DNA from: an uncultured Alcaligenaceae bacterium
GTDB taxonomy: Bacteria > Planctomycetota > Planctomycetia > Gemmatales > Gemmataceae
Reading direction: 5' to 3'
Assembly (NCBI GenBank): GCA_964471755.1
Contig: CAYYJM010000097.1
Span: forward strand, 1-14,565
Length of the DNA stretch: 14,565 nucleotides
This document shows, piece after piece, positions 19 to 13,676 of this stretch; the first letter of the stretch is position 1; the number at the start of each line of letters is the position of its first letter. A program made the translations under genes and the position numbers. The notes under the pieces are model-generated. The model ran no database searches, had not been told where the DNA came from, and was given only the letters and a program-made list of their open reading frames with translations.

Positions 19-3000
19 TCAGGGCTCGCTGAGGATCGACGCGAAATCGATGTCCGTCCGAGAGTGCGGCGTGAATTGATCGGTGGCCGTCATCTGGCGG
101 TAGGCGTCCTTGCTGGCACTGCTGAGGTACTCCAACTGCGTCAGGAGGAGGTGAACTCGTTCGTGGTAGAAGATCACGTCCTCACCGCCTGGATGGCTGA
201 GGATCTCCTGACCTTCGAGGGCCTCCTCGGCCAGTTGCTGGAGTGCCTCACCCGCAGAGCTGTTCGGCCGCTCCAGAACGACCAGTTCCTGGACCGCGAC
301 GACACCACTGGACTGGTTCGCCGGCCGGCGCGGAGTGGCCTGCAGGTCTGGTTCGGCCTTCTGAAGGCAGACTTCCACCTCGCCCAGGCGGAGGCTGTTC
401 GAGGTCGTCTGCTGCAAGAACAGGTCGGCGACGCTGGTCTCGGCCAGGTGACCGTTCGCGAAGCGACTGGCCACCTCTAGCAAGCTGTCCTGCACTCCGC
501 GCAGGGGCGTGTTGGAGAGACAGACATTCACCAGGGCCTGGTATTTCTCGCGGATCATGGCCTCGATCTGGTGGTCCAGTTCGAGCAACTGGTCGGGGCC
601 GATCTCAGCGACGATCTTCTCCAGGGCCTCGCTCAGACTCTTGCAGCCTCCGGGCAGGAGGATGCGACCCGCTTCCGGACGCAGGCCGGTCCCCTGGGCG
701 CTGAAGTTGGCCGCGACCCGGCCGGGATGGCTGCTACTGATCACCGGCGTGCCCAGCGCTTCGAGGCTGCGCAGCAGCTCTCCGAGGCGGACTCGACAGA
801 AGTTGACCTCACGGAGTTCGTCGGAAAGATGGCCGCGCAGGGCCAGGAACGTCTGGGAGATCCGGTGCAAGATCAGGCTCTGCAAGCGCACCTTGGGATA
901 GGCACGCAGGATGGTGATCAGCTGATCGGGAGTGTAGTTGAGCTGCTTGCCACGACCGGCCAGGATCTCCTGGAGGGTGTTGTAGCCGTTCTTCGCCTGG
1001 AGGTCAAAATCCTTGCCGAGCGGTTCGTGGTGTTGCAGGATCTGTTCCAGCTGTGCCAGCAGTTGCCGGATGGCTTCCTCGGCCCCGGCCAGGCGGAACT
1101 CCGGCTCCTCCAGCAGGCGGACGGCGATCTCGGTCAGTTTCTGGCTCCACTCGTTCATCAACGACTCGGCCACCGTACGCAGGTAGGTGTCGAAGAGACT
1201 CGACTGGACGTGGAGAGTCTCCTCGCTCGGTTTGCCGAGCAGGCGTTCGAGTTCCTCGACCACCGGCTGCAGTTCGTCGGGCGGGATGTCTGCGGCCGTC
1301 ACCTGGCCCCAGCGTTTGGCCGGGACCGAAGACGCGGCGCGCAGCTGGCGAACCAGGGGCTCGACCACGGCCAGGAGTGCCGTTTCCGGGTCCTTGCCGA
1401 CCTGCTCACGCAACCGATCCTGAAGGCGTTCGAGGAAGGACTCGACCCCGAGATCGCGACGCTGCCATTGTTCCTTGACGACGCTCGTGACGGCTCCGAG
1501 GATCGGCTTGCTATCCTTGCTCATCCAGCGCACGACCAGTTGCATGCACAGGTGGCGAGCGGCCTCGCGGAGCAGTTCACGGCGCGGCCAGGAAAGCCGG
1601 TGCAGGCCGAAGGTCTGAGCGTAGAGTCCGCGTTCGTTCCAGGGCGGACCCGGCAAGCCGGCCCGGCCCAGATCGGCGACCCGACCCAGCGGCGTGCCCA
1701 GATCGCGGAACAGCATCTGGCCGGTCATGTCCTGCAGCTCGCGCGTGCGGACTTCCTCACTCTCGTCCGGCAACGGTAAGAGGATGGTCCGGACGAAGGG
1801 CGGTTCGCCATCGGAGAGGGGAGTTTCGCGTTCGTGGTAGCGGCCGGTGAAGACCGTTCCCGGTGTGGCGAAGTAGCGCAATTCCGTGAGGGCGGCAAAG
1901 GTGTTGCTCCGACGCAGGCGCTCGTCCCAGTTCTCGGGTCCGGGCCGGCCGCGCCGGGAATCGGGAACGAGGAGAACGGCGACGATGTCGGGTTGCTCAA
2001 ACCCGCGCTGTCGGATCAAGGAGCGAAGGACGTAGGCCAGATCGAGAAACATGCCCGAGCCGGTTCCGCCGGCCAGGTTGGCGATCAGGTAGACGCGGGG
2101 CCGATTGGTGCGCAGCCCACAGCCGGTTTCGCTCGCGGCTCGTTGCAGGGCGGCCGGGTCCAGGATGGCGTCCAGCTCGGCGGCCAGGCGGTGAAGGATG
2201 AGCCGGTAATTGTCGCAGAAGGCGAGCCGGCCCAGGGCACGGACGCCGGTGGTCACCTGCGAGCGCGGGATGCGATAGAGCATCTGCTGCGGAATCCACG
2301 TCTCCAGGCTCGGCCGACCTTCGCGCGGTTTGAGGTAGTGGCTGGGCCGATTGAGCGGAGCCAGGAGGACCTCGTTGCTGGACAGGGCCGGCCCGGACTT
2401 GCCCTGGGTCGCCGTCCGGGTGACATCCGGATCGGTGTCGAGCAGAAGAAGCTTCAAGCTGGGGAGGGCGTCGAGGCCACCGAACGACTCGACGAGCCGC
2501 TCACGCAGGCGGCGCAGGATGCCCAGTCCGCTCTGACCCAGACCGATGACCAGGCCGGGGAACAGACAGCCGTCGCCCTTGATCTCTGGCACGGGCTTGC
2601 GCGGTTGATTCCCCGCGCTGCCCGTCAGGGGGGCAGATCGGTGAGCGGCGGTCGCCTGCGCCTCGACGCTCCGCAGTGGGTGGGTGGTCCCCGGGCCGGA
2701 GTCGGGCGGAGAGGACGGACGGTTCGCGCCTGCGATTCGTGTCGAGTCGCTCGGCACGATGGCTGCGGGCTCCGGTCGTGATTCCGCCAGTGTGCCCGTG
2801 GTGGGGACTTCCGAACGAAGCGAGGCCGACGGCTCTCCTTCCTTCAGAAGCTGGACCATTTCCATGCAGGTAGGGAAACGATCCGCTGGCGTCTTGGCGA
2901 GTGCCCGCAGGATGATCGGTTGCTCCCACGAAGGCAGCGTCGCGACGTTCGGCTGACCCTGGAGGTGTTGCAGGATCAACTGGCGGATGTTCGAGCCGGA

Positions 3001-3648
3001 GAAAGGACGCTGGCCGGTGAGCAGTTCCTGGTAGCAGATCGCCAGGCTGTACTGATCGCTGTGTCGGCTGACGATGCCGTCGAACGTTTCGGGAGCGGCG
3101 TAGACGGGCGTGATGCCGCCGGTGACCTTGGTTTCGAGCCCTTCGAGATCCTTGACCAGGCCGAAGTCCGCCACCTTGACGTGGTTGTGGACGAGGAAGA
3201 GATTCTGTGGCTTGATGTCCAGGTGCTGCAACTGGTACAGGCCGTTCATCAGATCGAGGGCCTCGGCCGTCTCCGCCAGATAGCCGAGCAGTTCGTCGCG
3301 GGGGATGCCGGGCAGTCCCTGAGCGCGGCACTCCTTGAAGCGGTCCCAGAGGTTGCGATCGGCCAACTCCATGACGATGAGGAGCTGGCCGTTGATGATG
3401 TCGTAGCGTTCCAGCGACAGGATGTAGGGATGGCGAACGGTCTTGACGCGCGCGAGGGCCTTGAGTTCCTGCTCGGCGCGTTCACCGTCGTCGGTACTCT
3501 GGAGGTCGCCGTAGACGAACTTGATGGCCTTGTGCAGACCGCCGGGGGCCTCGCACTTCCAGACCTCGCCAAAGCCGCCGCCGCCCAGTCGCTCGATGAG
3601 GCGATAGCCAGGAAGCGGTTCGGCGTTGAATTCCAGGCGGGCCGTCAT
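19..3648 (-). CDS. Multidomain protein: N-terminal Hanks-type Ser/Thr protein kinase, Pro/Ser-rich linker, tubulin/FtsZ-superfamily GTPase-like domain, ~500-aa alpha-helical C-terminal region
   Basis: 1209-aa ORF, ATG start at 3648-3646 preceded by GGAGAG SD 8 nt upstream. Kinase motifs: GGGGFGEV (G-loop), AIKF (VAIK Lys), HLDIKPQN (catalytic loop), DFG, AAPE. Tubulin/FtsZ motifs: VIGLGQSGLGIL (T1-like Gly loop, aa ~366-378) and LIANLAGGTGSGMFLDLAYVLR (tubulin signature GGGTGSG plus H4-like helix, aa ~521-542). No internal stops; codon usage consistent with neighbours. Confidence 0.85.
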   Translation of the reverse strand: MTARLEFNAEPLPGYRLIERLGGGGFGEVWKCEAPGGLHKAIKFVYGDLQSTDDGERAEQELKALARVKTVRHPYILSLERYDIINGQLLIVMELADRNLWDRFKECRAQGLPGIPRDELLGYLAETAEALDLMNGLYQLQHLDIKPQNLFLVHNHVKVADFGLVKDLEGLETKVTGGITPVYAAPETFDGIVSRHSDQYSLAICYQELLTGQRPFSGSNIRQLILQHLQGQPNVATLPSWEQPIILRALAKTPADRFPTCMEMVQLLKEGEPSASLRSEVPTTGTLAESRPEPAAIVPSDSTRIAGANRPSSPPDSGPGTTHPLRSVEAQATAAHRSAPLTGSAGNQPRKPVPEIKGDGCLFPGLVIGLGQSGLGILRRLRERLVESFGGLDALPSLKLLLLDTDPDVTRTATQGKSGPALSSNEVLLAPLNRPSHYLKPREGRPSLETWIPQQMLYRIPRSQVTTGVRALGRLAFCDNYRLILHRLAAELDAILDPAALQRAASETGCGLRTNRPRVYLIANLAGGTGSGMFLDLAYVLRSLIRQRGFEQPDIVAVLLVPDSRRGRPGPENWDERLRRSNTFAALTELRYFATPGTVFTGRYHERETPLSDGEPPFVRTILLPLPDESEEVRTRELQDMTGQMLFRDLGTPLGRVADLGRAGLPGPPWNERGLYAQTFGLHRLSWPRRELLREAARHLCMQLVVRWMSKDSKPILGAVTSVVKEQWQRRDLGVESFLERLQDRLREQVGKDPETALLAVVEPLVRQLRAASSVPAKRWGQVTAADIPPDELQPVVEELERLLGKPSEETLHVQSSLFDTYLRTVAESLMNEWSQKLTEIAVRLLEEPEFRLAGAEEAIRQLLAQLEQILQHHEPLGKDFDLQAKNGYNTLQEILAGRGKQLNYTPDQLITILRAYPKVRLQSLILHRISQTFLALRGHLSDELREVNFCRVRLGELLRSLEALGTPVISSSHPGRVAANFSAQGTGLRPEAGRILLPGGCKSLSEALEKIVAEIGPDQLLELDHQIEAMIREKYQALVNVCLSNTPLRGVQDSLLEVASRFANGHLAETSVADLFLQQTTSNSLRLGEVEVCLQKAEPDLQATPRRPANQSSGVVAVQELVVLERPNSSAGEALQQLAEEALEGQEILSHPGGEDVIFYHERVHLLLTQLEYLSSASKDAYRQMTATDQFTPHSRTDIDFASILSEP
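1549..2565 (-). other. Tubulin/FtsZ-like GTPase domain (aa ~362-700 of the 19..3648 protein)
   Basis: T1-like GLGQSG loop and exact tubulin signature motif AGGTGSGM followed by a helix resembling tubulin H4; domain boundaries approximate. Confidence 0.65.
2839..3606 (-). other. Ser/Thr protein kinase catalytic domain (aa ~15-270 of the 19..3648 protein)
   Basis: All Hanks subdomain motifs present in order (GxGxxG, K of AIK, HxDxKPxN, DFG, APE). Confidence 0.85.
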
Positions 3649-3656
3649 GAGGCCGG

Positions 3657-3662
3657 CTCTCC
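3657..3662 (-). promoter_or_regulatory. Shine-Dalgarno-like GGAGAG for kinase/tubulin-like gene
   Basis: Reverse complement of ctctcc at 3657-3662 gives GGAGAG 8 nt upstream of ATG (3648). Confidence 0.4.
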
Positions 3663-3796
3663 AGGTTCAGGTAGCACGACTAGCCCGGGACGACGGACCG
3701 GGGGCGTGAAAGACTCGCGCAACTATAGGTCGCGGTTGAGACGGCCGCAAATTCAGGCCAGCGAGAAAGTCCCCCGGCGAGCGACAGACAGATACA

Positions 3797-4954
3797 ATGG
3801 CAGCAATCCGGAGGGACCGTGTCGTGACTCTGTACGCGCTGTCGATCAAGCAACCGTGGGCCGCCCTGCTCGTGCAGGGCCGCAAGACGATCGAGGTGCG
3901 CCGCTGGACCACGCGCCGGCGGGGGCTGGTCCTGATCCACGCCGCCCGGGTGCCGGACGCGCGGCCGGAAGGCTGGCGGCACGTCGGCCCGGACCTGGAG
4001 TCGGTCGCGCGCCTCAACGGCGGCATCCTCGGCGTGGCCGTCCTTCGCGACGTACTGACCTACCGCACGTCGGCCGGGTTCGTGGCGGACCAGGCGAAGC
4101 ACTTCAACGAACCGGGCTGGTTCGAGGAATCGGGCCTGTACGGACTGGTGTTCGCGCAGGCGGCACGGGTGCCGTTCTATCCGTTCACGGCACAGGTGCG
4201 GTTCTGCCGGGTCGAGGGATTTCCGATGGCGAGCCTGCCGACTGAGTTCCGCGCCCTGGCCGCCGTCGCGGATCGCAGGACGGGGAGCCGGCTGCTGGTG
4301 AGCGTTCGCTCGGCGGCCGAGGCGCGCGCGGCGATCGCCGGCGGCTGTGATCTGCTCGACGCCAAGGAGCCGACTGCCGGGCCGCTGGGTGCCGTCACGC
4401 CGGCGGTCCTGGCGGACATCCTGGCCGAGGCCGGTGGCGTGCCCGTCAGCGCCGCCCTGGGGGAATTGCCATCGTCCGGCCCGCTGCTGGGCGTGCCGAC
4501 CGGGGTGACGTACGTCAAGATCGGCCTGGCCGGCTGGGGCCAGCGCGACTGGCGACGCCGCCTGGCCGAGGTGCGGTCGCCGCGTCTGGTGGTCGCCGCG
4601 TATGCCGATCATGTGCGAGCCGGTTCGCCGACGCCGGAAGCGCTGCTGGAGGCGGCCATCGACCTGCAGGCGGCCGCGTTTCTGATCGACACCTGGACGA
4701 AGGATGGTGGCGACCTGCTCGGAGCCGTGGGCCGGGGTCGGCTGGCGGCCCTCGTCGCACGGGCGCGATCCGGCGCGATGCCGATCGCGCTGGCCGGATC
4801 GCTGACCGCCCCGACGATCGCGGCCCTGGGCTTCCTGGCACCGGACTGGTTCGCCGTGCGCGGCGCGGCGTGCGAGGGTGGACGGGGCGGCGTGGTTTCC
4901 GCCGAGCGGGTGCGCGATCTGACCCGGTTGCTGCACGGCGACACGGAGACGTAG
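3797..4954 (+). CDS. Fusion protein: N-terminal ASCH (PUA-like) domain + C-terminal MfnB-like (DUF556/COG1891, (5-formylfuran-3-yl)methyl phosphate synthase family) TIM-barrel aldolase domain
   Basis: ASCH-like N-terminus: LYALSIKQPWAALLVQGRKTIEVRRW. C-terminal half aligns motif-by-motif to archaeal MfnB: LLVSVRSAAEARAAIAGGCDLLDAKEPTAGPLGA (Schiff-base Lys region DxK), YVKIGLAG, VVAAYADHVRAG, ALAGSL, VRGAACEGGRG. Alternative start GTG at 3824 is in frame and has a GGAGG SD 8 nt upstream; the ATG at 3797 lacks an SD. Confidence 0.8.
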   Translation: MAAIRRDRVVTLYALSIKQPWAALLVQGRKTIEVRRWTTRRRGLVLIHAARVPDARPEGWRHVGPDLESVARLNGGILGVAVLRDVLTYRTSAGFVADQAKHFNEPGWFEESGLYGLVFAQAARVPFYPFTAQVRFCRVEGFPMASLPTEFRALAAVADRRTGSRLLVSVRSAAEARAAIAGGCDLLDAKEPTAGPLGAVTPAVLADILAEAGGVPVSAALGELPSSGPLLGVPTGVTYVKIGLAGWGQRDWRRRLAEVRSPRLVVAAYADHVRAGSPTPEALLEAAIDLQAAAFLIDTWTKDGGDLLGAVGRGRLAALVARARSGAMPIALAGSLTAPTIAALGFLAPDWFAVRGAACEGGRGGVVSAERVRDLTRLLHGDTET

Positions 4955-4972
4955 CCCCTCCGCACCGCTCGC

Positions 4973-6061
4973 TCAGGCCGTCGCCGGGGTCTTCCATCGG
5001 AGCCGATACTGTGCCGGCAGGACGTAGAGCCAGAGCAGGAGGACGGCTCCGGCCGCGAACATCAGGACGCTGCCGTACGCCTCGAAGCCGACCGGCCGGA
5101 CGTCGGCCCGGAGCAACTCGTTGAGCGAGCGATGGATGGCGTAGCCCATCATCATCACCGCCATCACCTGGCCGTCGCGTGTCTTGAACGGCGAGTAGGC
5201 CAGCAGCAGCAGGAACAGCAGGAACATGCTGACCGTCTCGTACAGCTGCGTCGGATGCAGGCCGAGGCTGCCGGGAACGCAGACGACCGGAGCCGGCTGA
5301 CCACGCACCGTCAGTGTCAGCGTCCGCTGATCGCGCGGCCAGAGACGCGGATCGAACAGGGCTCGGGTCAGTTCGTCCACGCTGCGGACGTCGCGGTCGC
5401 CGACCTTCTCGATGATCTGCCCGGAACGCAGACCGGCGGCCTGATCGATGCGGACGCCGCCGGTCACTTGCTGTTCTGGCGGAGCGACCGTGAAGCCGGC
5501 CGCGGTCTGGATGCCGGTGCCGATGAGTTCCTGCGTGGCCGGGGCTCCGAGCGGAAACGACACGGCCAGGACGGGAGCCTCGACGGCGGGCACCTGGCCA
5601 TAGCAGCAGCCGTTGCAGAAGCAGCCGATCCGGCCCAGAGCGATGCCCAGGACCAGGGCGGGAGCGAGAACGTCGGCCACCTTGCCCGTGGTGATGCCGT
5701 GCTTGCGCAGCACGAACACGTAGTGGACCAGGTAGCCGAGGAAGCCGCCGATCAGCGAGCCGTAGAGGATGATGCCGCCGTCCCAGATACGCGGCAGCTT
5801 GTAGAGGAAGTCCCAGACGTCGGCGACGTGATCCTGCATGAGCAGGTAGGAGATCCGCGCCCCGAGCAGACCGCCGATGAACAGGTAGATGGTCAGATCC
5901 TGGATGAATTCCTTCTTGATGCCGGCCTTCTCGGCCCGCCGACCGGCCAGCCAGGAACAGAGGAGAAAGGCGATGAAGAGCATGACCCCGAAGCCGTAGA
6001 TCGGGACGCCATCGGGGAACGTCTCGCTCTTGATCGGGATGCGGAAGAGGACCGGGTACAT
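4973..6061 (-). CDS. lgt: Prolipoprotein diacylglyceryl transferase (Lgt) with extended periplasmic insertion
   Basis: 362 aa. N-terminal Lgt pattern (YGFGVMLFIAF...GARISYLL), signature GRIGCFCNGCCYG (Lgt G-x-GN-x-NGE-like loop), HPTQLYE signature, C-terminal TM helices. ~110 aa between the glycine loop and HPTQLYE versus ~45 aa in E. coli Lgt. Confidence 0.85.
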   Translation of the reverse strand: MYPVLFRIPIKSETFPDGVPIYGFGVMLFIAFLLCSWLAGRRAEKAGIKKEFIQDLTIYLFIGGLLGARISYLLMQDHVADVWDFLYKLPRIWDGGIILYGSLIGGFLGYLVHYVFVLRKHGITTGKVADVLAPALVLGIALGRIGCFCNGCCYGQVPAVEAPVLAVSFPLGAPATQELIGTGIQTAAGFTVAPPEQQVTGGVRIDQAAGLRSGQIIEKVGDRDVRSVDELTRALFDPRLWPRDQRTLTLTVRGQPAPVVCVPGSLGLHPTQLYETVSMFLLFLLLLAYSPFKTRDGQVMAVMMMGYAIHRSLNELLRADVRPVGFEAYGSVLMFAAGAVLLLWLYVLPAQYRLRWKTPATA

Positions 6062-6127
6062 GGCATGTTATCCGTTTGTCCCGGCGCTCACGCCCCGGGC
6101 AATTTTCTGTCGCCCCAGCGGGGCATG

Positions 6128-6260
6128 TGTAGGGTGGGCCGAGCGCCAGCGAGAGCCCACCGAGCCCGCTGTGACAAACGATCAGGGGACGTTCCGGCTT
6201 GATTCATCGTTCATCGTTTCCGCCACGGTGGGCTCTCGCTGACGCTCGGCCCACCCTACA
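6128..6260. repeat. 35-bp near-perfect inverted repeat pair (arms 6128-6162 and 6226-6260, 1 mismatch) flanking a 63-bp spacer; each arm itself contains a gtgggc...gcccac mini-hairpin
   Basis: tgtagggtgggccgagcgccagcgagagcccaccg vs cggtgggctctcgctgacgctcggcccaccctaca (reverse complement differs only g/a). Spacer contains tandem catcgtt catcgtt. Lies between the stop of the enolase gene (6301) and the lgt start (6061), both minus strand. Confidence 0.6.
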
Positions 6261-6300
6261 ATTCTGTCCCTGATTACATTGTATGGGCAACGCCACGGCG

Positions 6301-7404
6301 TCACCCGATCTCGACCACCGCCTTGCCCAGGACCTCCCATCGTGGCGTGACACCCAGGCCGGGAGACGTACTCGCGGCCAGCCGACCATTCTGTCTCCGG
6401 GGCGCGCCCTCGGCGTTGGAGACGGTAACGTAACTGTTGAAGTCCGTCGAGGTGAACAGGAACTCCGGCGGCGTGCTGTGAGCCAGGTGCGCGATCGCTG
6501 CCGTGACGATGTCACCGCCCCAGCTGTCCTCCAGCGTCATGGCCAGGCCGAGCGAGACGCACAGATCGCGAGCCTGTCGTGCCTTCGTCAGCCCGCCGAA
6601 CTTGCTGATCTTGATGTTGACCACGTCCATCGCCCGGTCGGCATGGCCGCGCAGCAGCACGTCCACCGAATCGATGTTCTCGTCGAGGACGAATGGATGA
6701 TCCGTGTGACGCCGTACGGTCAGGCACTCCTCGTACGTCCGGCACGGCTGCTCGATGTACACGTCCACGTCGCGCACCGCTCGGACGACTCGCAGGGCCT
6801 CGTGCATCAGCCAGCCGGTGTTGGCGTCGGCGACGAGCCGATCACCGGGCTGTAACTTCGCGGCCACCTGGTGAATGCGCTGGACATCCACGTCCGGGTC
6901 GCCGCCGACCTTGAGCTGAAAGCGGCGGTAGCCCTCGGCCCGGTAGCCAGCGACACGCTCGGCCATCGCCTCGGGAGCCTCCTGCGAGATGGCTCGATAG
7001 AGACCGAAATCCTCGCCGTAGCGGCCGCCGAGCAGGACACAGACCGGCTGACCGGTCGCCTGGCCGAGCAGATCCCAGCAGGCCATGTCGAGGCCGGACT
7101 TGACGTAGGCATGCCCCTGGAGGGCGGCGTCCATCCGGCGATTGAGTTTGCCGAGCTGGGTGGGATCTTCGCCGAGCAGGTGCGGCCCGAGTTCGCGCAG
7201 ACCGGCCCGCACCCCGGCGGCGTAGGCCGGCAGGTAGAACGGGCCAAGCGGACAGACCTCGCCATGACCGACGAGGCCGGTGTCCGTCTCGACGGCGATG
7301 ACGGTGCTGTCGAAGACGGTGATGGCCTTGCCGCCGGACCACTTGTAGCTCCCCTCGGCCAGGGGCAACTCGACACGGTAGGCACGGATACGGCTGATCT
7401 TCAT
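6301..7404 (-). CDS. Enolase-superfamily enzyme, mandelate racemase/muconate lactonizing enzyme (MR/MLE) family (racemase/epimerase/dehydratase; exact substrate unknown)
   Basis: 368 aa by the ORF track (GTG at 7407, then ATG at 7404). Metal ligands in canonical MR/MLE spacing: DANTGW, IEQPC, LDENI. Conserved [13 protein letters not shown] motif (catalytic Lys at end of 6th strand). Second-strand motif FQLKVGG. Start overlaps hflK stop (GTGATG). Confidence 0.85.
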
Positions 7405-8348
7405 CACGGCTTCTCCATCCTCGGCAGCAGATCGTCGATCAGGCCGAGTTGGCCCGTCTCCTGCAACTGGCGTAGCACACGCGTGCGCTCCTCACGCCAG
7501 AGTTGCTCCAGGTAATTCGGATTCTTCACGATCGCCTCGACCAGCACGGCGACGCGGGCCGCAAACCGCTCGGCGTTCCGGCGAGCCAGTTCACGCTGCG
7601 TGTAAGCGTAGCTCGCGGCCGATTTCTCGATCCGCTGGGCCTCCGCGTGGGCGGCCTCGACCTGAGAGAACTGCTCCTGCCGCGCTCGCGTCTCCTGCGT
7701 GTGGATGTTCGCCTGGGCGCGCGAGACGCTGTCGAACGCCTGCTTGACCTGCTCCGGCGGAGCCAGGTGGACGACGCGCACATCGATCACCGCAATCCCC
7801 AGTCGATACGGATCGAGCCGACTGGCCAGATCGCCGACGAGGAAGGTCGGCAGCGTGACCTTGCCATCAAGCAGAACGTCATCGACGTTCCGCCCCGCGA
7901 CCCATCCGGCCAGGCTCGACTCGGTAACCCGACCCAGAAGCGGCTCGACCCGCTGGCGTGCGAGGACGTAGTCCTCCAGGCCGTCCTCTGGCACCTTGAA
8001 CGAGACGACGACGCGGACATCGATCAGGTTGTGATCACCGGTGAGCAGCTGTCCCGGTGGATTCGCCGACTCGCCGCGACGCCGGGCGGCCTCCCGGGCC
8101 TCCTCGGTGTTCAGGTCTGGATCGAAGCCGACAGCGAGGGTCTGGATGCGATCGACCGGCACGCGATCGACCTGATCGATGCCCCACGGCCAGCCGATGC
8201 GGAGGCCCGGTCCCGGCTTGAACGGCAGGAACGCACCGAATCGGCGAACGACGGCCCGCTCGCCCGGCCGCACCTCGACGATGCCGGTCAGCAGCCAGCC
8301 GACCAGGACGACGCCGAGCAGGAGGAGGAAGATTCGGCGCACGCTCAC
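7404..8348 (-). CDS. hflK: HflK-like SPFH/band-7 membrane protein
   Basis: 314 aa. N-terminal TM helix ([15 protein letters not shown]) then [16 protein letters not shown]...[13 protein letters not shown] and [39 protein letters not shown], matching E. coli HflK core (ERGVVTRFGK...; LLDVNFQAARPPEEVKAAFDDAIAARENEQQYIREAE). GTG start at 8348 overlaps hflC stop by 4 nt. Confidence 0.85.
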
Positions 8349-9334: not shown

Positions 9335-10039
9335 TCACGCGATCCACAAATCGCTGCACGCCTGCTCGCAGCTCTGCTCCAGATTCAACGGCACAACCTG
9401 ATCCTCGCTCAACCACAGCGGCAGCGTCGGCAGCGGTTGACCGACGTTCAGGGCGTGCGACCAGGCTTCCAGCAGTGTCCGCTTGCCGCGCCGGACCCAT
9501 CGACACGACGCGGCGTAAATATCCGGGGGCGGATCGCCGTGCGACGGGTCAGCGTGCCCGAGGAAGGCGAGCAACTCGACGTACAGGTTGAACTGCCGCA
9601 CGGTCACCAGATCGACGATGCTCACGGCGACGCCCTTCTGGAGCAGAGCGGCACACTTGGCGACGAAGACGTTGCGATGCTCGGGTCGGTCCAGGTTCGC
9701 GGGGCTGACGATCTCGATGGCGGCGACCAGAAGCCGGCTGCGGGTAGCGTCGAACACACGCACGCCATACTCGTCGTAGATGGGCAGCGTCGTCTCGACG
9801 CACAGACTGGGGGGCGTCGGTGCCCAGTCTGCCGCGCTGGTGTCGGTCTCATCGACCGGCTCGACCTGCGAGATGGCGTTCTCCCGGTGGAACCCGGAAT
9901 GCACCCGTGGCTCCGCGACGTGGCCAGACGGAAGTCGTTTCCGCAACTGCTGGACGATGACCGCAGGCCAGCCTCCAAAGAAGCCCTCCCACGAAGCGAT
10001 CGTGTCCACCGGCGGTCGGAAGTGATCGCGTAGCGGCAT
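9335..10039 (-). CDS. DUF4058 / Uma2-like (PD-(D/E)XK-fold) family protein
   Basis: 234 aa. Core block LLVAAIEIVSPANLDRPEHRNVFVAKCAALLQKGVAVSIVDLVTV resembles the DUF4058/Uma2 consensus (D...IEVLSP.NK...gR..Y..K......g..L.EIDLL). Strong GGAGGAG SD 9 nt upstream of ATG, located inside the 3' end of the ATPase gene; ATG lies 3 nt after the ATPase stop. Confidence 0.6.
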   Translation of the reverse strand: MPLRDHFRPPVDTIASWEGFFGGWPAVIVQQLRKRLPSGHVAEPRVHSGFHRENAISQVEPVDETDTSAADWAPTPPSLCVETTLPIYDEYGVRVFDATRSRLLVAAIEIVSPANLDRPEHRNVFVAKCAALLQKGVAVSIVDLVTVRQFNLYVELLAFLGHADPSHGDPPPDIYAASCRWVRRGKRTLLEAWSHALNVGQPLPTLPLWLSEDQVVPLNLEQSCEQACSDLWIA

Positions 10040-10042
10040 GGC

Positions 10043-13000
10043 TCACGGCTCCTCCGGCCGACGCGGCAACGACGGCATCACCGGCCGACGATCGAACGAG
10101 TCACCGCCCGGCAGCAGGCCCTTGCGCTGCTCGCCCAGGATCATCCAGAGTTGCAGCCAGCCCGGCAGGGCCACGTCGTCGATCAGAAACTTCTCGCGCA
10201 AGGCCAGGGCCGACGCGATCGCCTCGGACGCCAGTCGGAACTCCGTCAGGTACGCCTGCTGCTCCAGTCGATGCCGACGAGCCTCCTGCAACCACGACCA
10301 CGCCGCCTCCGGCTTCTCTCCGCCATCGACTCGAGCCCCGGCGGCCAGGAACAGGCCAACCTCGCTCGTCCACGATAGTGTCGATCGACTGTCATCGCGA
10401 CCGAAAAAGACCGTCTGCCGAGCCCGGGCCAGTCGCTCCTTCTCGTAGCTCTGCACCACGGCCTCGCTCACCCGCCGCAGCGAGCGGCCAAACTGGTCGG
10501 CCAGGTTGCGCGTCCGGGCGGCCTCCGCCTCGTTCTTCCGACGGTCGGCCCGCTCCATCGCCACGGCCACTCGATGGTACGCGCCAACCACCTCCGGCGG
10601 CGGATGCAGATCGTGCAGCGCCAGCCCCGTCACCTCCAGGCCAAGACCCGGCGAGCCAAACTCCGCCAGCCGGCCCTGAAGCCGGGTCAGGGCTTCGCCC
10701 TGGAACTCGCGACGATCCTGTGTCAGCAGACTCTCGAACGACCGACCAGCAACCAGCTCGCGGAAGACCGCCTCGGCACTGCCACGAACGACCGCCTCCG
10801 GATCGCCCACGTCGAACAGGTAGACACGCGGCTCCGTGATCCGGTAACGGATGGCCGCCTGGACCTCGATCAGGTTGCCGTCGCCCGTGATCATGACGGC
10901 CTCGTCCGGCAGCAGACGAATGCCCTCGCCGGAATGACCACTACTCCACGAACGGCCGTCGGCCAGGCCCCCCTCGGGGCGATCGACCCGGTAGCCGATC
11001 GCCACCGAGCGGATGCGATCGGGCTGCACCCGACGAACCGTCTCGATCGGCCAGGGCCAGCGCCAGTGCAGGCCCGGCGACAGGTCGGCGACCGGCTTGC
11101 CGAAACGCTGCACGATGCCGACCTCGTCGGACTGGATCGCGGTCAGACCCCAGAGCGGATAGATGACCAGCAGAAGCAGACCCAGCGTCGCCAGGATCGG
11201 CCGCCAGTGGTGCGTCACCCAGTGCAGGCCCTCTTCGAGGTTGAGGTACTTCTCCGTCCAGTCATTGACACCGGTCAGCCAGTGGCGGAAGCCGGCGTAC
11301 GTCCGGCTCTCCGGCTTCTCGAACCAGAGCAGCCGCATCGCGTTGAGCAGCACCGCGAGCGAGCCGAGTTGGTGGTAGAGGACGGCGGCCAGCGGCGACT
11401 GCTCGTACCAGGCCGCCGGAGCGAACAGCGGCCAGAGCCAGGAGGTCAGGACGACGCCGACGACGTTGACGACGATCGCGAACCAGAAGATGTTCTGGCC
11501 GATGATGGCGACCGTCTGCCGGGACAGCCGCACGAGCAGCGGCAGGTGACGGAGCGGATCACCCATGCAGACGACATCGCCGGTCTCGGCGGCGATGTCA
11601 GTGCCGGTGCCGCCGATGGCCAGGCCGACCGTGGCACGGGCCAGGGCCGGGGCGTCGTTGATGCCATCGCCGACCATCGCGACGCGCTTGCCCTCGGCCT
11701 CCCACGCCGCGACGAACTCGGCCTTCTGCGTGGGGAGAAGTTCGGCATGAACCTCGGCCAGGCCGAGCTGATCGGCGACGTTCCGGGCGACGGCAGCGCG
11801 GTCGCCGGTTAGCATGGCGACGCGGCCGATGCCCAGGCCGCGCAGTTCGGAGAGAACGTCGCTCGCCTCGTCGCGGACCCGGTCGCGGACGCCGAGGACG
11901 GCGATGACGTGCAGATCGCCAGGAATGCCAGGAGCCGGCTCACTCGTGGAGGCACCGCCGGGCTGGGCCTGGATCTGGGCCGACGTGGTCGGCTCGGCGA
12001 TGCTGCCCCGTGCCAGGAGCAGGGCCGTCTGACCGGCGGCGTCGAGTTCCCCCAGGGTCTTCAGGACCGCCTCGGGAAGAGCGACACCGAGTTCCTCCAG
12101 GAGCCGACGATTGCCGACGAGCAGGGTCGCCTCGCCAGCGACGGCCAGGATGCCGAGACCGGGATACGCCTGGAAGCGTTCGACCGTCGGCAGATCGAGG
12201 CCGCGCTTGCGCGCCTCGCCGACGAGCAGTTCGGCGAGAAGATGCTCGCTGCGCTGCTCGGCCGTCGCCGCCCAGGCGAGGAGTTCGGTTTCGGAATGCC
12301 CGCCCACCGGGACGATGCGGGCGAGTTCGAGCCGGCCCGCCGTCAGGGTGCCGGTCTTGTCGAAGGCGAAGGCATCGACCGTGGCGAGGCGTTCGAGGGC
12401 GGCCCCGCTCTTGATCAGGATGCCGGTGCCGGCGAGCCGTCCCAGCGCGGCGATGACGGCCGCTGGCGTCGCCAGGATCAGGGCACACGGGCAGGCGACG
12501 ACCAGGACCGACAGGGCCGGATAGGCGGCGATGCGGATCGCCTGCATCAGGGTGAAGCGCAGGCCCTCGCCGGGTCGGGTCCAGCCGCTCCAGACGGCGT
12601 AGACGCCGACGAGAAACGTCACCAGGGCCAGGCCGAGAACGATCGGCAGGAACCAGCGTGCGAGCCGGTCGGCGGTGCGTTCCAGTGGGGCCTTGTTCTG
12701 CAAGGCCCGGGCGGTCCACTCGACGACCTGGCCGGCGACGGTATGCTCGGCGACCCGGCGGGCCTCGATCGTCAGGGCACCGGTCTGGTTGAGGCAACCG
12801 GCCAGGATCTCGTCGCCGGGACCGCGATCGACCGGCAGACTCTCGCCGGTCAGGGCGCTGGTATCGACGGACGATCGACCGTCACGGACGACGCCATCGC
12901 AGGGAATCCGACCGCCCGGCTTGACGACGACCACGTCGCCGACCTGAAGCTCGGCAATGAGGATGCGCTCCTCCTGCCCGTCGCGCAGACGCCAGCAGCG

Positions 13001-13501
13001 GCGCGGGAAGACCTCGGCGAGCTGGCGGATCGCATGCTGGGTTCGCTCGAAGGTGACACTCTCCAGACACTCACCGAGCATGCCGATGAAGACGATCTCG
13101 GCGGCGACGAGCGGTTCTTGCAGCAGGATGGCGGCGATGCAGGCGAGGGCCAGGGCGAGATCGGCTCCGAGTCGGCCCTGCAAGAGCGAGTCGATGGAGC
13201 CATAGAGGGCGCGAGCGCCGCCGAGGATGGCGGCGAGCAGAGCGAGACGGTAGCCGGCGTAGGTGTTGGGCCAGCTCGGCAGACCCAGGCCGAAGCCGTT
13301 GAACCTGGCGGCGACGTAGACCCACAGGTCGGCGACGATGAGCAGACCGATGAGGGCCGTCAGCAGGTAGAGCGTAAGACGGCTCTCCTGCTCCAACCGC
13401 GAATCAGCGTAGGAAATCTCGCGGTGCATGACAGATCGACCAGGAGGGAGAATCGGATCGGGCTCGACTGTCAGGCTACGGGCGATGGCGAAGTCAGTCA
13501 A
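10043..13501 (-). CDS. P1B-type (heavy-metal, CPC-motif) P-type ATPase fused in frame to an extra TM helix and a C-terminal HflK-like SPFH/band-7 domain
   Basis: 1152-aa uninterrupted ORF. ATPase motifs: TGES (A-domain), ACPCAL (TM6 CPC), DKTGTLT (phosphorylation site), SEHLLA (HP-like), MLTGD, MVGDGINDAPAL, final TM pair ending LLNAMRLL (aa ~670-725). Then linker, TM helix HWRPILATLGLLLLVIYPLW (aa ~765-784) and SPFH domain: EVGIVQRFGKPVADLSPGLHWRWPWPIETV ... GLEVTGLALHDLHPPPEVVGAYHRVAVAMERADRRKNEAEAAR (HflK-like). No N-terminal CxxC metal-binding domain. Start is TTG per the ORF track; an alternative ATG sits at aa 25 (nt 13429). Confidence 0.85.
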   Translation of the reverse strand: MTDFAIARSLTVEPDPILPPGRSVMHREISYADSRLEQESRLTLYLLTALIGLLIVADLWVYVAARFNGFGLGLPSWPNTYAGYRLALLAAILGGARALYGSIDSLLQGRLGADLALALACIAAILLQEPLVAAEIVFIGMLGECLESVTFERTQHAIRQLAEVFPRRCWRLRDGQEERILIAELQVGDVVVVKPGGRIPCDGVVRDGRSSVDTSALTGESLPVDRGPGDEILAGCLNQTGALTIEARRVAEHTVAGQVVEWTARALQNKAPLERTADRLARWFLPIVLGLALVTFLVGVYAVWSGWTRPGEGLRFTLMQAIRIAAYPALSVLVVACPCALILATPAAVIAALGRLAGTGILIKSGAALERLATVDAFAFDKTGTLTAGRLELARIVPVGGHSETELLAWAATAEQRSEHLLAELLVGEARKRGLDLPTVERFQAYPGLGILAVAGEATLLVGNRRLLEELGVALPEAVLKTLGELDAAGQTALLLARGSIAEPTTSAQIQAQPGGASTSEPAPGIPGDLHVIAVLGVRDRVRDEASDVLSELRGLGIGRVAMLTGDRAAVARNVADQLGLAEVHAELLPTQKAEFVAAWEAEGKRVAMVGDGINDAPALARATVGLAIGGTGTDIAAETGDVVCMGDPLRHLPLLVRLSRQTVAIIGQNIFWFAIVVNVVGVVLTSWLWPLFAPAAWYEQSPLAAVLYHQLGSLAVLLNAMRLLWFEKPESRTYAGFRHWLTGVNDWTEKYLNLEEGLHWVTHHWRPILATLGLLLLVIYPLWGLTAIQSDEVGIVQRFGKPVADLSPGLHWRWPWPIETVRRVQPDRIRSVAIGYRVDRPEGGLADGRSWSSGHSGEGIRLLPDEAVMITGDGNLIEVQAAIRYRITEPRVYLFDVGDPEAVVRGSAEAVFRELVAGRSFESLLTQDRREFQGEALTRLQGRLAEFGSPGLGLEVTGLALHDLHPPPEVVGAYHRVAVAMERADRRKNEAEAARTRNLADQFGRSLRRVSEAVVQSYEKERLARARQTVFFGRDDSRSTLSWTSEVGLFLAAGARVDGGEKPEAAWSWLQEARRHRLEQQAYLTEFRLASEAIASALALREKFLIDDVALPGWLQLWMILGEQRKGLLPGGDSFDRRPVMPSLPRRPEEP
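10046..11224 (-). other. C-terminal TM helix + SPFH/band-7 (HflK-like) domain (aa ~760-1152) of the fusion protein
   Basis: Shares the WPWPIE(S/T)V block with the adjacent HflC-like protein and the PPE(E/Q)V..A(F/Y) block with HflK. Confidence 0.75.
11312..13501 (-). other. P1B-ATPase core (aa 1-~730) of the fusion protein
   Basis: Complete set of P-type ATPase motifs; see the CDS entry. Confidence 0.8.
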
Positions 13502-13676
13502 GCCAGTGACACTCCGCAGGTGCGTGACCGTGACCTTGCGAATCGTGTGAACGCAAACAGCATTGGTGGGCCTGCGCTGTTCCGGCCTTCCGGGACGATT
13601 GGGCGTCGGTGGCGTTCCGCCGCTCCCGCCCGCCCTACATTCACTCGTGGCCTCGTCGGCGTCAAAATCGGCAAAA

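Follow-up and report, generated by a model that had tools for sequence, protein, structure and literature searches.

What is the large palindrome that separates lgt from the gene upstream of it, and does it serve this locus or does it belong to something more widely distributed? Across the window, by which we mean the whole stretch of 14,565 nucleotides analyzed here, the arms of this palindrome are by far the longest inverted repeat. The preliminary description placed the feature between the enolase gene and lgt, and offered a terminator or attenuator, a protein-binding palindrome, a MITE-like element or a small structured RNA as explanations. The identity of lgt was confirmed. The upstream gene, which is read from the same strand, is better named otherwise: we rejected the glycolytic enolase in favor of an enolase-superfamily (MR/MLE) enzyme, because it matches the cis-3-hydroxy-L-proline dehydratase model above the NCBIfam cut-off (Table 1). 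The palindrome begins 40 nt past the stop codon of this dehydratase gene and ends 66 nt ahead of the lgt start codon, filling 133 of the 239 nt of the intergenic space (6062-6300).

An exact recount agrees with the two 35-nt arms, the single mismatch and the 63-nt gap that had been described. The arms are reverse complements of each other at every position but one, where C6146 stands opposite A6242; the right unit thus differs from the left by one transition, carrying T instead of C in its loop. The local gtgggc/gcccac hairpin reported for each arm is present in both as GGTGGGC...GCCCACC, and the tandem catcgtt repeat was located within the spacer. The window is G+C rich. When up to three mismatches are allowed, the arm 34-mer is found at only two sites in the window, and 200 shuffles gave an expectation of 0. 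Weaker complementarity runs on from the arms into the spacer, so that the inverted repeat can be drawn with 55-nt arms at 82%.

Table 1. Positions of the palindrome, of its neighbors in the window and of related features on other contigs.
Feature	Contig	Position	Strand	Remarks
lgt (downstream gene)	window	4973-6061	-	start codon ATG at 6061
Two-hairpin motif	window	6080-6125	+	full-length match to RF01687 (Acido-Lenti-1), below threshold: it scores 31.6 bits where the gathering score is 37
Probable REP head-head (HH) homodimer, REPIN-like, whole	window	6128-6260	.	133 nt, GTAG tags outward; HH as defined in PMC3733652
Left putative REP unit	window	6128-6162	+	T, GTAG tag (6129-6132) and hairpin GGTGGGC(C)-GAGCGCCAGCGAG-(A)GCCCACC; fits the family consensus in the alignment
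Spacer	window	6163-6225	.	63 nt; ends partly complementary, 6163-6182 with 6206-6225
Tandem CATCGTT, two copies	window	6205-6218		inside the spacer
Right putative REP unit	window	6226-6260	-	inverted; CTAC at 6256-6259 on the + strand
cis-3-hydroxy-L-proline dehydratase-like MR/MLE enzyme (upstream gene)	window	6301-7407	-	NF043002, 607 bits against a cut-off of 500
RAYT gene region	L018 (same in L019)	9808-10721		Gemmataceae MAG; eight GTAGCCGAAGTCGCCAGACTTCGG-type REP copies around the gene
RAYT gene region	L021	~9850-10665		outward-facing doublet, TGTAGCTGGATTCGCAAGAATTCAG...CTACA, on each side, for example TGTAGCTGGATTCGCAAGAATTCAG...CTGAATTCTTGCGAATCCAGCTACA
RAYT gene region	L022	~9700-10610		GTAGCTGAAGTCGCCAGACTTTGG arrays
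Core in a different repeat	L007	7025-7045		
Core in a different repeat	L012	50-70		
Core in a different repeat	L010	1311-1331	-	
Core in a different repeat	L011	92-112	-	

Folding predictions show how strongly the region can pair with itself. As RNA, positions 6110-6280 fold to -108 kcal/mol on the minus strand (shuffle mean about -65) and to -100.5 kcal/mol on the plus strand (shuffle mean about -62), with z = -8.7 in both cases and 0 of 200 shuffles folding as well. On the gene-sense (minus) RNA the arm mismatch turns into a G-U wobble, which leaves all 35 bp of the stem paired; since a single transition has even odds of giving a G-U pair on either strand, we draw no inference from the wobble. 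Folded alone as single-stranded DNA, one arm leaves TGTAG unpaired next to a G+C-rich stem of 7-8 bp and a loop of 13-15 nt (-8.8 kcal/mol), within which a small inner GC/GC pairing forms. A copy of the same unit from contig L002 reaches -11.7 kcal/mol.

Repetitive extragenic palindromes (REPs), a known kind of small hairpin repeat, are defined by a layout in which an unpaired GTAG tag precedes a stem-loop, and for this reason we read each 35-nt arm as one REP. The whole feature is then probably a head-head homodimer of a GTAG-tagged REP, that is, a REPIN-like doublet. Judged by its sequence and predicted folds, it fits every structural property of REPs and REPINs that we considered. The arm is a short stem-loop unit of the expected size (35 nt, where 20-40 nt is usual) and has an unpaired GTAG at one end. 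Inverted dimers occur, with four HH doublets having spacers of 18-63 nt against a typical 20-100 nt, and two inverted REPs fold together with the spacer into a single hairpin.

The GTAG super-family of REPs is known from eight phyla, Planctomycetes (R. baltica) included, and its members are commonly HH dimers with spacers of 20-100 nt whose ends are sometimes complementary (Di Nocera et al. 2013, PMC3733652). They favor gaps between unidirectional or convergent ORFs and sites downstream of coding regions, and are occasionally intragenic, tRNA synthetase genes being among the hosts (PMC3733652). REPINs are defined as pairs of inverted REPs that fold into hairpins, and these pairs are regarded as the unit that moves (Bertels and Rainey 2011, PMC3116915). 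The nearest published sequences, the RAYT-associated REPs of Cronobacter (E.) sakazakii, GTAGGGtGGGTAAGCGcAGCGCACCCaCC, and H. influenzae, GTAGGGTGGGCTTcAGCCCACC (Nunvar et al. 2010, PMC2817692), share with the window REP an unpaired 5' GTAG followed by a GGTGGG.../...CCCACC stem, an AGCG-N-AGCG-type loop flanked by unpaired bases and a length of 32-35 nt. Unlike them, the window REP has a loop that is longer (13-15 nt) and shows a conserved sequence peculiar to it, GAGCGYCAGCGAG, and its hosts are Planctomycetota instead of Gammaproteobacteria. Like GTAG REPs generally, the window type is mainly extragenic and forms outward (HH) dimers whose spacers fall in or close to the 20-100 nt range. 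Like REPINs, it joins two inverted REPs and a spacer into one long hairpin in single-stranded DNA or mRNA, with arms that differ at 1 of 35 nt. Pseudomonas REPINs differ from it in that the doublet together with its spacer is conserved within a genome as the replicating unit and has a cognate RAYT nearby, whereas the doublet spacers compared here, each taken from another genome, bear no relation to one another.

The sequence type of the doublet was not found in the searchable literature, where a full-text search with REP sub-strings returned unrelated primer matches alone; the kind of element is well known, and no new mechanism is involved. TnpA-REP has been shown to act on folded single-stranded REPs and to require a conserved tag motif (Corneloup et al. 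2021, PMC8266576). By analogy, the REPs described here would be recognized as folded single strands, through tag and hairpin, by a REP-associated HUH tyrosine transposase (RAYT, or TnpA-REP), and such an enzyme would cut and rejoin REP units without target-site duplication, allowing them to spread through intergenic space.

If the arms are REPs, the same unit could be expected at other sites, and the preliminary description had likewise reasoned that a MITE would recur. It does recur: no fewer than six other contigs, from Planctomycetota MAGs or metagenomes, carry the arm, singly or in outward-facing doublets, at unrelated and mostly intergenic sites. The family consensus is GTAGGGTGGGCCGAGCGYCAGCGAGGCCCACC, or, in full as aligned, (C/T)GTAGGGTGGGCCGAGCG(C/T)CAGCGAGGCCCACC. 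Among 185,579 species genomes, the arm 25-mer was found in three Planctomycetota MAG contigs, as one full arm beside a truncated inverted partner (L001), as a single arm (L002) and as an inverted doublet with an 18-nt spacer (L003); the exact 25-mer occurs just 1-2 times per representative genome. A 21-mer probe, GGTGGGCCGAGCGYCAGCGAG, from which the tag and the 3' stem half were left off so that the tag is not built into it, matches 10 metagenome loci. In L008, L009 and L013 this 21-mer is followed by a ...CCCACC-type closing half, and it is preceded by GTAG in L008 and L009 and by GGGG in L013. Taking all aligned REP copies together, 15 of 17 carry the GTAG tag.

A Hamming scan that allowed up to 7 mismatches over about 148 kb of sequence found about 15 family copies, against 0 expected from shuffles. 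Contig L002 has four of them within 8 kb, L009 has three within 10.5 kb, L013 has a cluster, and the window has one doublet plus one doubtful relic in its 14.5 kb. All four sequenced doublets have their tags outward, and their spacers measure 63 nt (window), 18 nt (L003), 21 nt (L009) and 46 nt (L002). These spacers are unrelated in sequence, one doublet having been compared per genome, and nothing is conserved outside the REP arms. The copies stand in both orientations relative to the flanking genes. Covariation in the stem is nearly absent among the 17 copies, 7 of 10 pairs being invariant; with so little variation in the stem, the alignment speaks neither for nor against selection on structure. 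When a synthetic protein query made from the ORFs of the REP was compared with 5.8 billion proteins, the two weak matches (E = 1-5) were both spurious ORFs running through outward-facing doublets. Neither a blastn search of 6100-6290 against 72,556 plasmids nor a search of viral contigs with the 17-mer GTAGGGTGGGCCGAGCG gave a match.

Some of these copies deserve description in their own right. One is the clear exception to the intergenic placement: in L002, a diverged doublet of the same family (3016-3123) lies in frame inside the ORF of leucyl-tRNA synthetase (2059-5001), where it corresponds to 36 extra residues, 'VGWAERSEAHQATDAASRAAATSTSVVGRAALDPPY', right after the WIGRS..F motif and ahead of the editing domain. 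Positions 423-585 of L013 hold four REPs arranged as two hybrid head-head dimers, in each of which one member has the GAGCGYCAGCGAG loop and the other is of a type with a short loop, GTAGGGTGGGTCGCAAGACCCACC; this second type resembles the H. parasuis REP. Within the window, positions 13566-13640, just upstream of the start of an ATPase gene, may contain a decayed REP that reads TGTAGGGCGGGCGGGAGCG...CAGCGCAGGCCCACC on the minus strand. It shares TGTAGGGCGGGC and the GGTGGGCC end with the family, but with z = -0.64 against shuffles we did not count it as a second copy.

Could the palindrome nevertheless have evolved in place, as a hairpin that terminates or attenuates transcription of the upstream operon before lgt? 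Its position 40 nt past a stop codon and between genes on the same strand would suit such a role, as would the very stable RNA stem of -108 kcal/mol. However, the same 32-35 nt unit recurs in unrelated contexts elsewhere, even within the LeuRS gene, and REP anatomy accounts for the nested hairpins without any local function. The terminator or attenuator that had been proposed finds no support in the surrounding sequence either: between 5800 and 6600 there are no terminator-like sites (a G+C-rich hairpin with a U-tract) on either strand and no sigma-70-like promoter consensus, and the stem of the doublet is followed by CAUGCCCCGCUGG. We consider a hairpin of local regulatory origin very unlikely, and the dispersed REP copies largely refute it.

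The comparison with a syntenic relative bears on the same question. Contig L014, from the closest relative whose DNA was available, has the gene order Band7-Band7-MR_MLE-LGT seen in the window, with an Lgt that is 76% identical, yet the gap between its MR/MLE gene and lgt measures 94 nt and contains no REP of the window's type. The window gap of 239 nt is longer by 145 nt, close to the 133 nt of the doublet; the flanks of the two contigs are too diverged in alignment for exact insertion boundaries. The absence of the doublet from this gap in L014 argues against a hairpin that evolved in place. Four short-read assemblies of relatives, L015, L016, L017 and L026 (each at position 1), all break 54-59 nt upstream of lgt, and these breaks in independent assemblies suggest that repeated sequence is present there too.

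A mobile origin of another kind also has to be weighed. In a classical MITE, the arms would be the terminal inverted repeats of a DDE-type IS, the element would be mobilised in trans, and a target-site duplication would surround it. The length of 133 nt, the near-perfect terminal inverted repeats, the intergenic position and the recurrence elsewhere are all consistent with a MITE. However, the sequences flanking 6128-6260 read ...GCATG and ATTCT..., with no direct repeat, and there is no IS-related gene in the window. Lone arms exist in L002 and L008, and in L001 a full arm is accompanied by a truncated partner; the spacers differ entirely between doublets, and each arm is itself a GTAG-tagged hairpin like the substrates of RAYT. 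We therefore give a classical MITE very little chance. Of the four explanations first offered, the MITE-like element nevertheless comes nearest. What stands of it is the dispersed repeat, with copies in other Planctomycetota contigs and none in the corresponding gap of L014; what does not stand is the type, which is that of a REP or REPIN rather than of an element with terminal inverted repeats and target-site duplications.

The sub-terminal hairpins of IS200/IS605 elements are recognised as single-stranded DNA by a Y1 HUH transposase, without target-site duplication. The doublet resembles these elements and their MITE-like derivatives in its hairpin anatomy and in the lack of a target-site duplication. 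It differs from IS200/IS605 in that no tnpA or tnpB lies between or near the arms, and in that the arms are identical inverted copies instead of distinct left and right ends.

The remaining option that had been raised at the RNA level is a small structured RNA, which would be either an RNA gene or a cis-regulatory element, such as an sRNA or a riboswitch. The very stable fold predicted for both strands is what such an RNA would show, but no Rfam family matches anywhere in the window at its gathering threshold, and over the doublet itself the search gave just spurious matches to long-hairpin microRNA-precursor models, far below threshold. Nothing is conserved beyond the REP arms, with spacers wholly different between copies, and copies occur in both orientations relative to the flanking genes. 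This leaves the structured RNA without support, and we hold it to be extremely improbable.

The one Rfam match with E < 1 lies beside the doublet and not over it. The Acido-Lenti-1-like motif (Table 1), with E = 6e-4 over the whole window, stops 2 nt short of the doublet on its left side, is antisense to lgt and is not part of the REP family. The same motif occurs at the same place upstream of lgt in L015 (1-27, minus strand; Lgt 77% identical), where it is cut by the contig end. A search at a permissive threshold found no such motif beside the REPs of L001, L002, L003, L008, L009 and L013, and we take its adjacency to a REP as local to the window site, since these other REP loci do not have it. 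Arrays of many copies make up the RF01687 seed in Lentisphaera, Koribacter and R. baltica, and this 'sRNA' family could itself be a REP-like DNA repeat, not an RNA gene. We also asked whether Acido-Lenti-1, taken as its reverse complement, is a GTAG REP. In that orientation just 5 of the 87 seeds read GTAG, whereas 54 of 87 read xTAG; the likeness is loose, and because GTAG is so rare among the seeds we do not equate the family with GTAG REPs.

If the doublet is a REPIN-like element, which transposase is its partner? Searches for a RAYT or Y1 gene in the window and at the REP-bearing loci (phmmer and tblastn, seven Y1 transposases) found none. We used R. baltica rba11751, with the sequence taken from the paper supplement, as a RAYT query, and obtained 863 matches, about 60% identical across planctomycete orders. 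This rba11751-type clade scores 25-31 bits on the NCBIfam model REP_Tyr_transpos NF047646, which has a cut-off of 80, and has no precomputed Pfam domain. RAYT genes flanked by REPs are called REPtrons (PMC3733652), and three of the four RAYT protein loci that we examined are clear REPtrons with GTAG REPs on both sides: L018/L019, L021 and L022, where the flanking REPs are of the types GTAGCCGAAGTCGCCAGACTTCGG, GTAGCTGGATTCGCAAGAATTCAG and GTAGCTGAAGTCGCCAGACTTTGG, respectively. Given these three loci, a REP-RAYT system of the same architecture is present in the phylum. The window doublet shares with these REPtrons the phylum, the tag-plus-hairpin layout and the outward-facing doublets (L021); it differs from them in stem and loop sequence (GTAGCCGAAGTCGCCAGACTTCGG and others), and the GTAGGGTGGGCC-type REP was found at none of the planctomycete REPtrons examined. 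None of the predicted RAYT proteins extended into translations of the window-type REP.

Further features were seen at two of these contigs. In L021, another outward-facing doublet, of type GTAGGGGCCGTGMCTCYGTGCCGGCCC and with a spacer of about 110 nt, lies at 12900-13062, 2.3 kb from the RAYT gene. The fourth locus, on the 12.7-Mb contig L020, has a RAYT gene (10001-10561) at whose flanks no REPs can be recognised. Directly after this gene comes a group II intron that contains an ORF for a reverse transcriptase (10742-12632), and a second copy of the 5' domain of this intron lies 5 kb upstream (5384-5607).

The search for a partner bears on another reading, in which the unit is a dispersed palindrome with a structural role or one that binds a protein, such as gyrase or a nucleoid protein, and in which it is kept by selection and has spread by recombination or gene conversion, perhaps as a fossil population that has lost its transposase. 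Different genomes share a strongly conserved 13-nt loop core, GAGCG-Y-CAGCGAG, which also turns up within a repeat family of an unrelated kind; the REP-bearing loci and the REPtrons examined yielded no cognate RAYT, and many E. coli strains have lost their REPtrons by deletion (PMC3733652). Roles of REPs in DNA supercoiling, transcription termination and mRNA stabilisation have been hypothesised (PMC3733652). However, such a palindrome is compatible with a REP origin and concerns present function, and the tag-plus-hairpin unit with its outward-facing dimers is the anatomy of a RAYT substrate. We regard the selected palindrome as unlikely, and continue with the REPIN-like doublet; DNA-level roles of the doublet, such as protein binding or cruciform formation, are possible.

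The unrelated repeat that shares the core comes from other metagenomic bacteria and has the form CCCTCTCC...GGGTGAGGG. At four metagenome loci (Table 1), the 21-mer core GGTGGGCCGAGCGYCAGCGAG lies within it, in the arrangement CCCTCTCC-loop-GGGAGAGG, core and CCGGGTGAGGG, and this repeat has neither the GTAG tag nor the closing CCCACC half. One may speculate that the window REP marks a REPIN-RAYT system, so far undescribed, of a poorly sampled Planctomycetota lineage, with the divergent rba11751-type RAYT clade as its partner and GAGCG-Y-CAGCGAG as a module that is shared between the repeats and recognized by a protein of the host or by a transposase, but we think this quite unlikely.

What might the doublet do where it now stands? 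We read it best as a passenger insertion in the gap between the dehydratase gene and lgt. Were these two genes co-transcribed, or were the upstream transcript to enter the doublet, the resulting RNA would carry an unbroken 35-bp stem. To judge by work on E. coli REPs, the likeliest effects at our locus would be that the upstream mRNA is shielded from 3' exonucleases, or that the doublet acts as a point of processing or partial termination. It would then be a 3'-end barrier or processing site that may stabilise the upstream mRNA, partly uncouple lgt from it, or both. Such a role would be more likely than that of a canonical intrinsic terminator.

Reading the nested palindrome as a REP doublet, and not as a dedicated regulator of lgt, mainly aids annotation. 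It also adds a defined REP consensus for Planctomycetota, for which published REP data are essentially those from Rhodopirellula baltica. Post-transcriptional control in this phylum is poorly known, and a perfect 35-bp RNA duplex between co-oriented genes is a testable candidate for a site where mRNA is stabilised or processed by an RNase III-type enzyme. Should the family turn out to be abundant and to have a RAYT as its partner, the REPIN-RAYT system would extend to another deep-branching lineage, and REPs inserted in frame in an essential gene, as in LeuRS of L002, would be natural examples to go with it.

Three other genes in the window have unusual domain combinations. The minus-strand gene at 19-3648 encodes an unusual protein of 1209 aa in which a Ser/Thr protein kinase is fused to a tubulin-like (Tubulin_2) domain. 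At 3797-4954 on the plus strand lies an ASCH and 4-HFC-P synthase fusion, also unusual; this ORF supersedes an overlapping minus-strand ORF (3680-4936) that has no Pfam match. Finally, a P-type ATPase with a C-terminal SPFH/Band 7 fusion (10043-13501, minus strand, 1152 aa) stands beside two stand-alone Band 7 genes.
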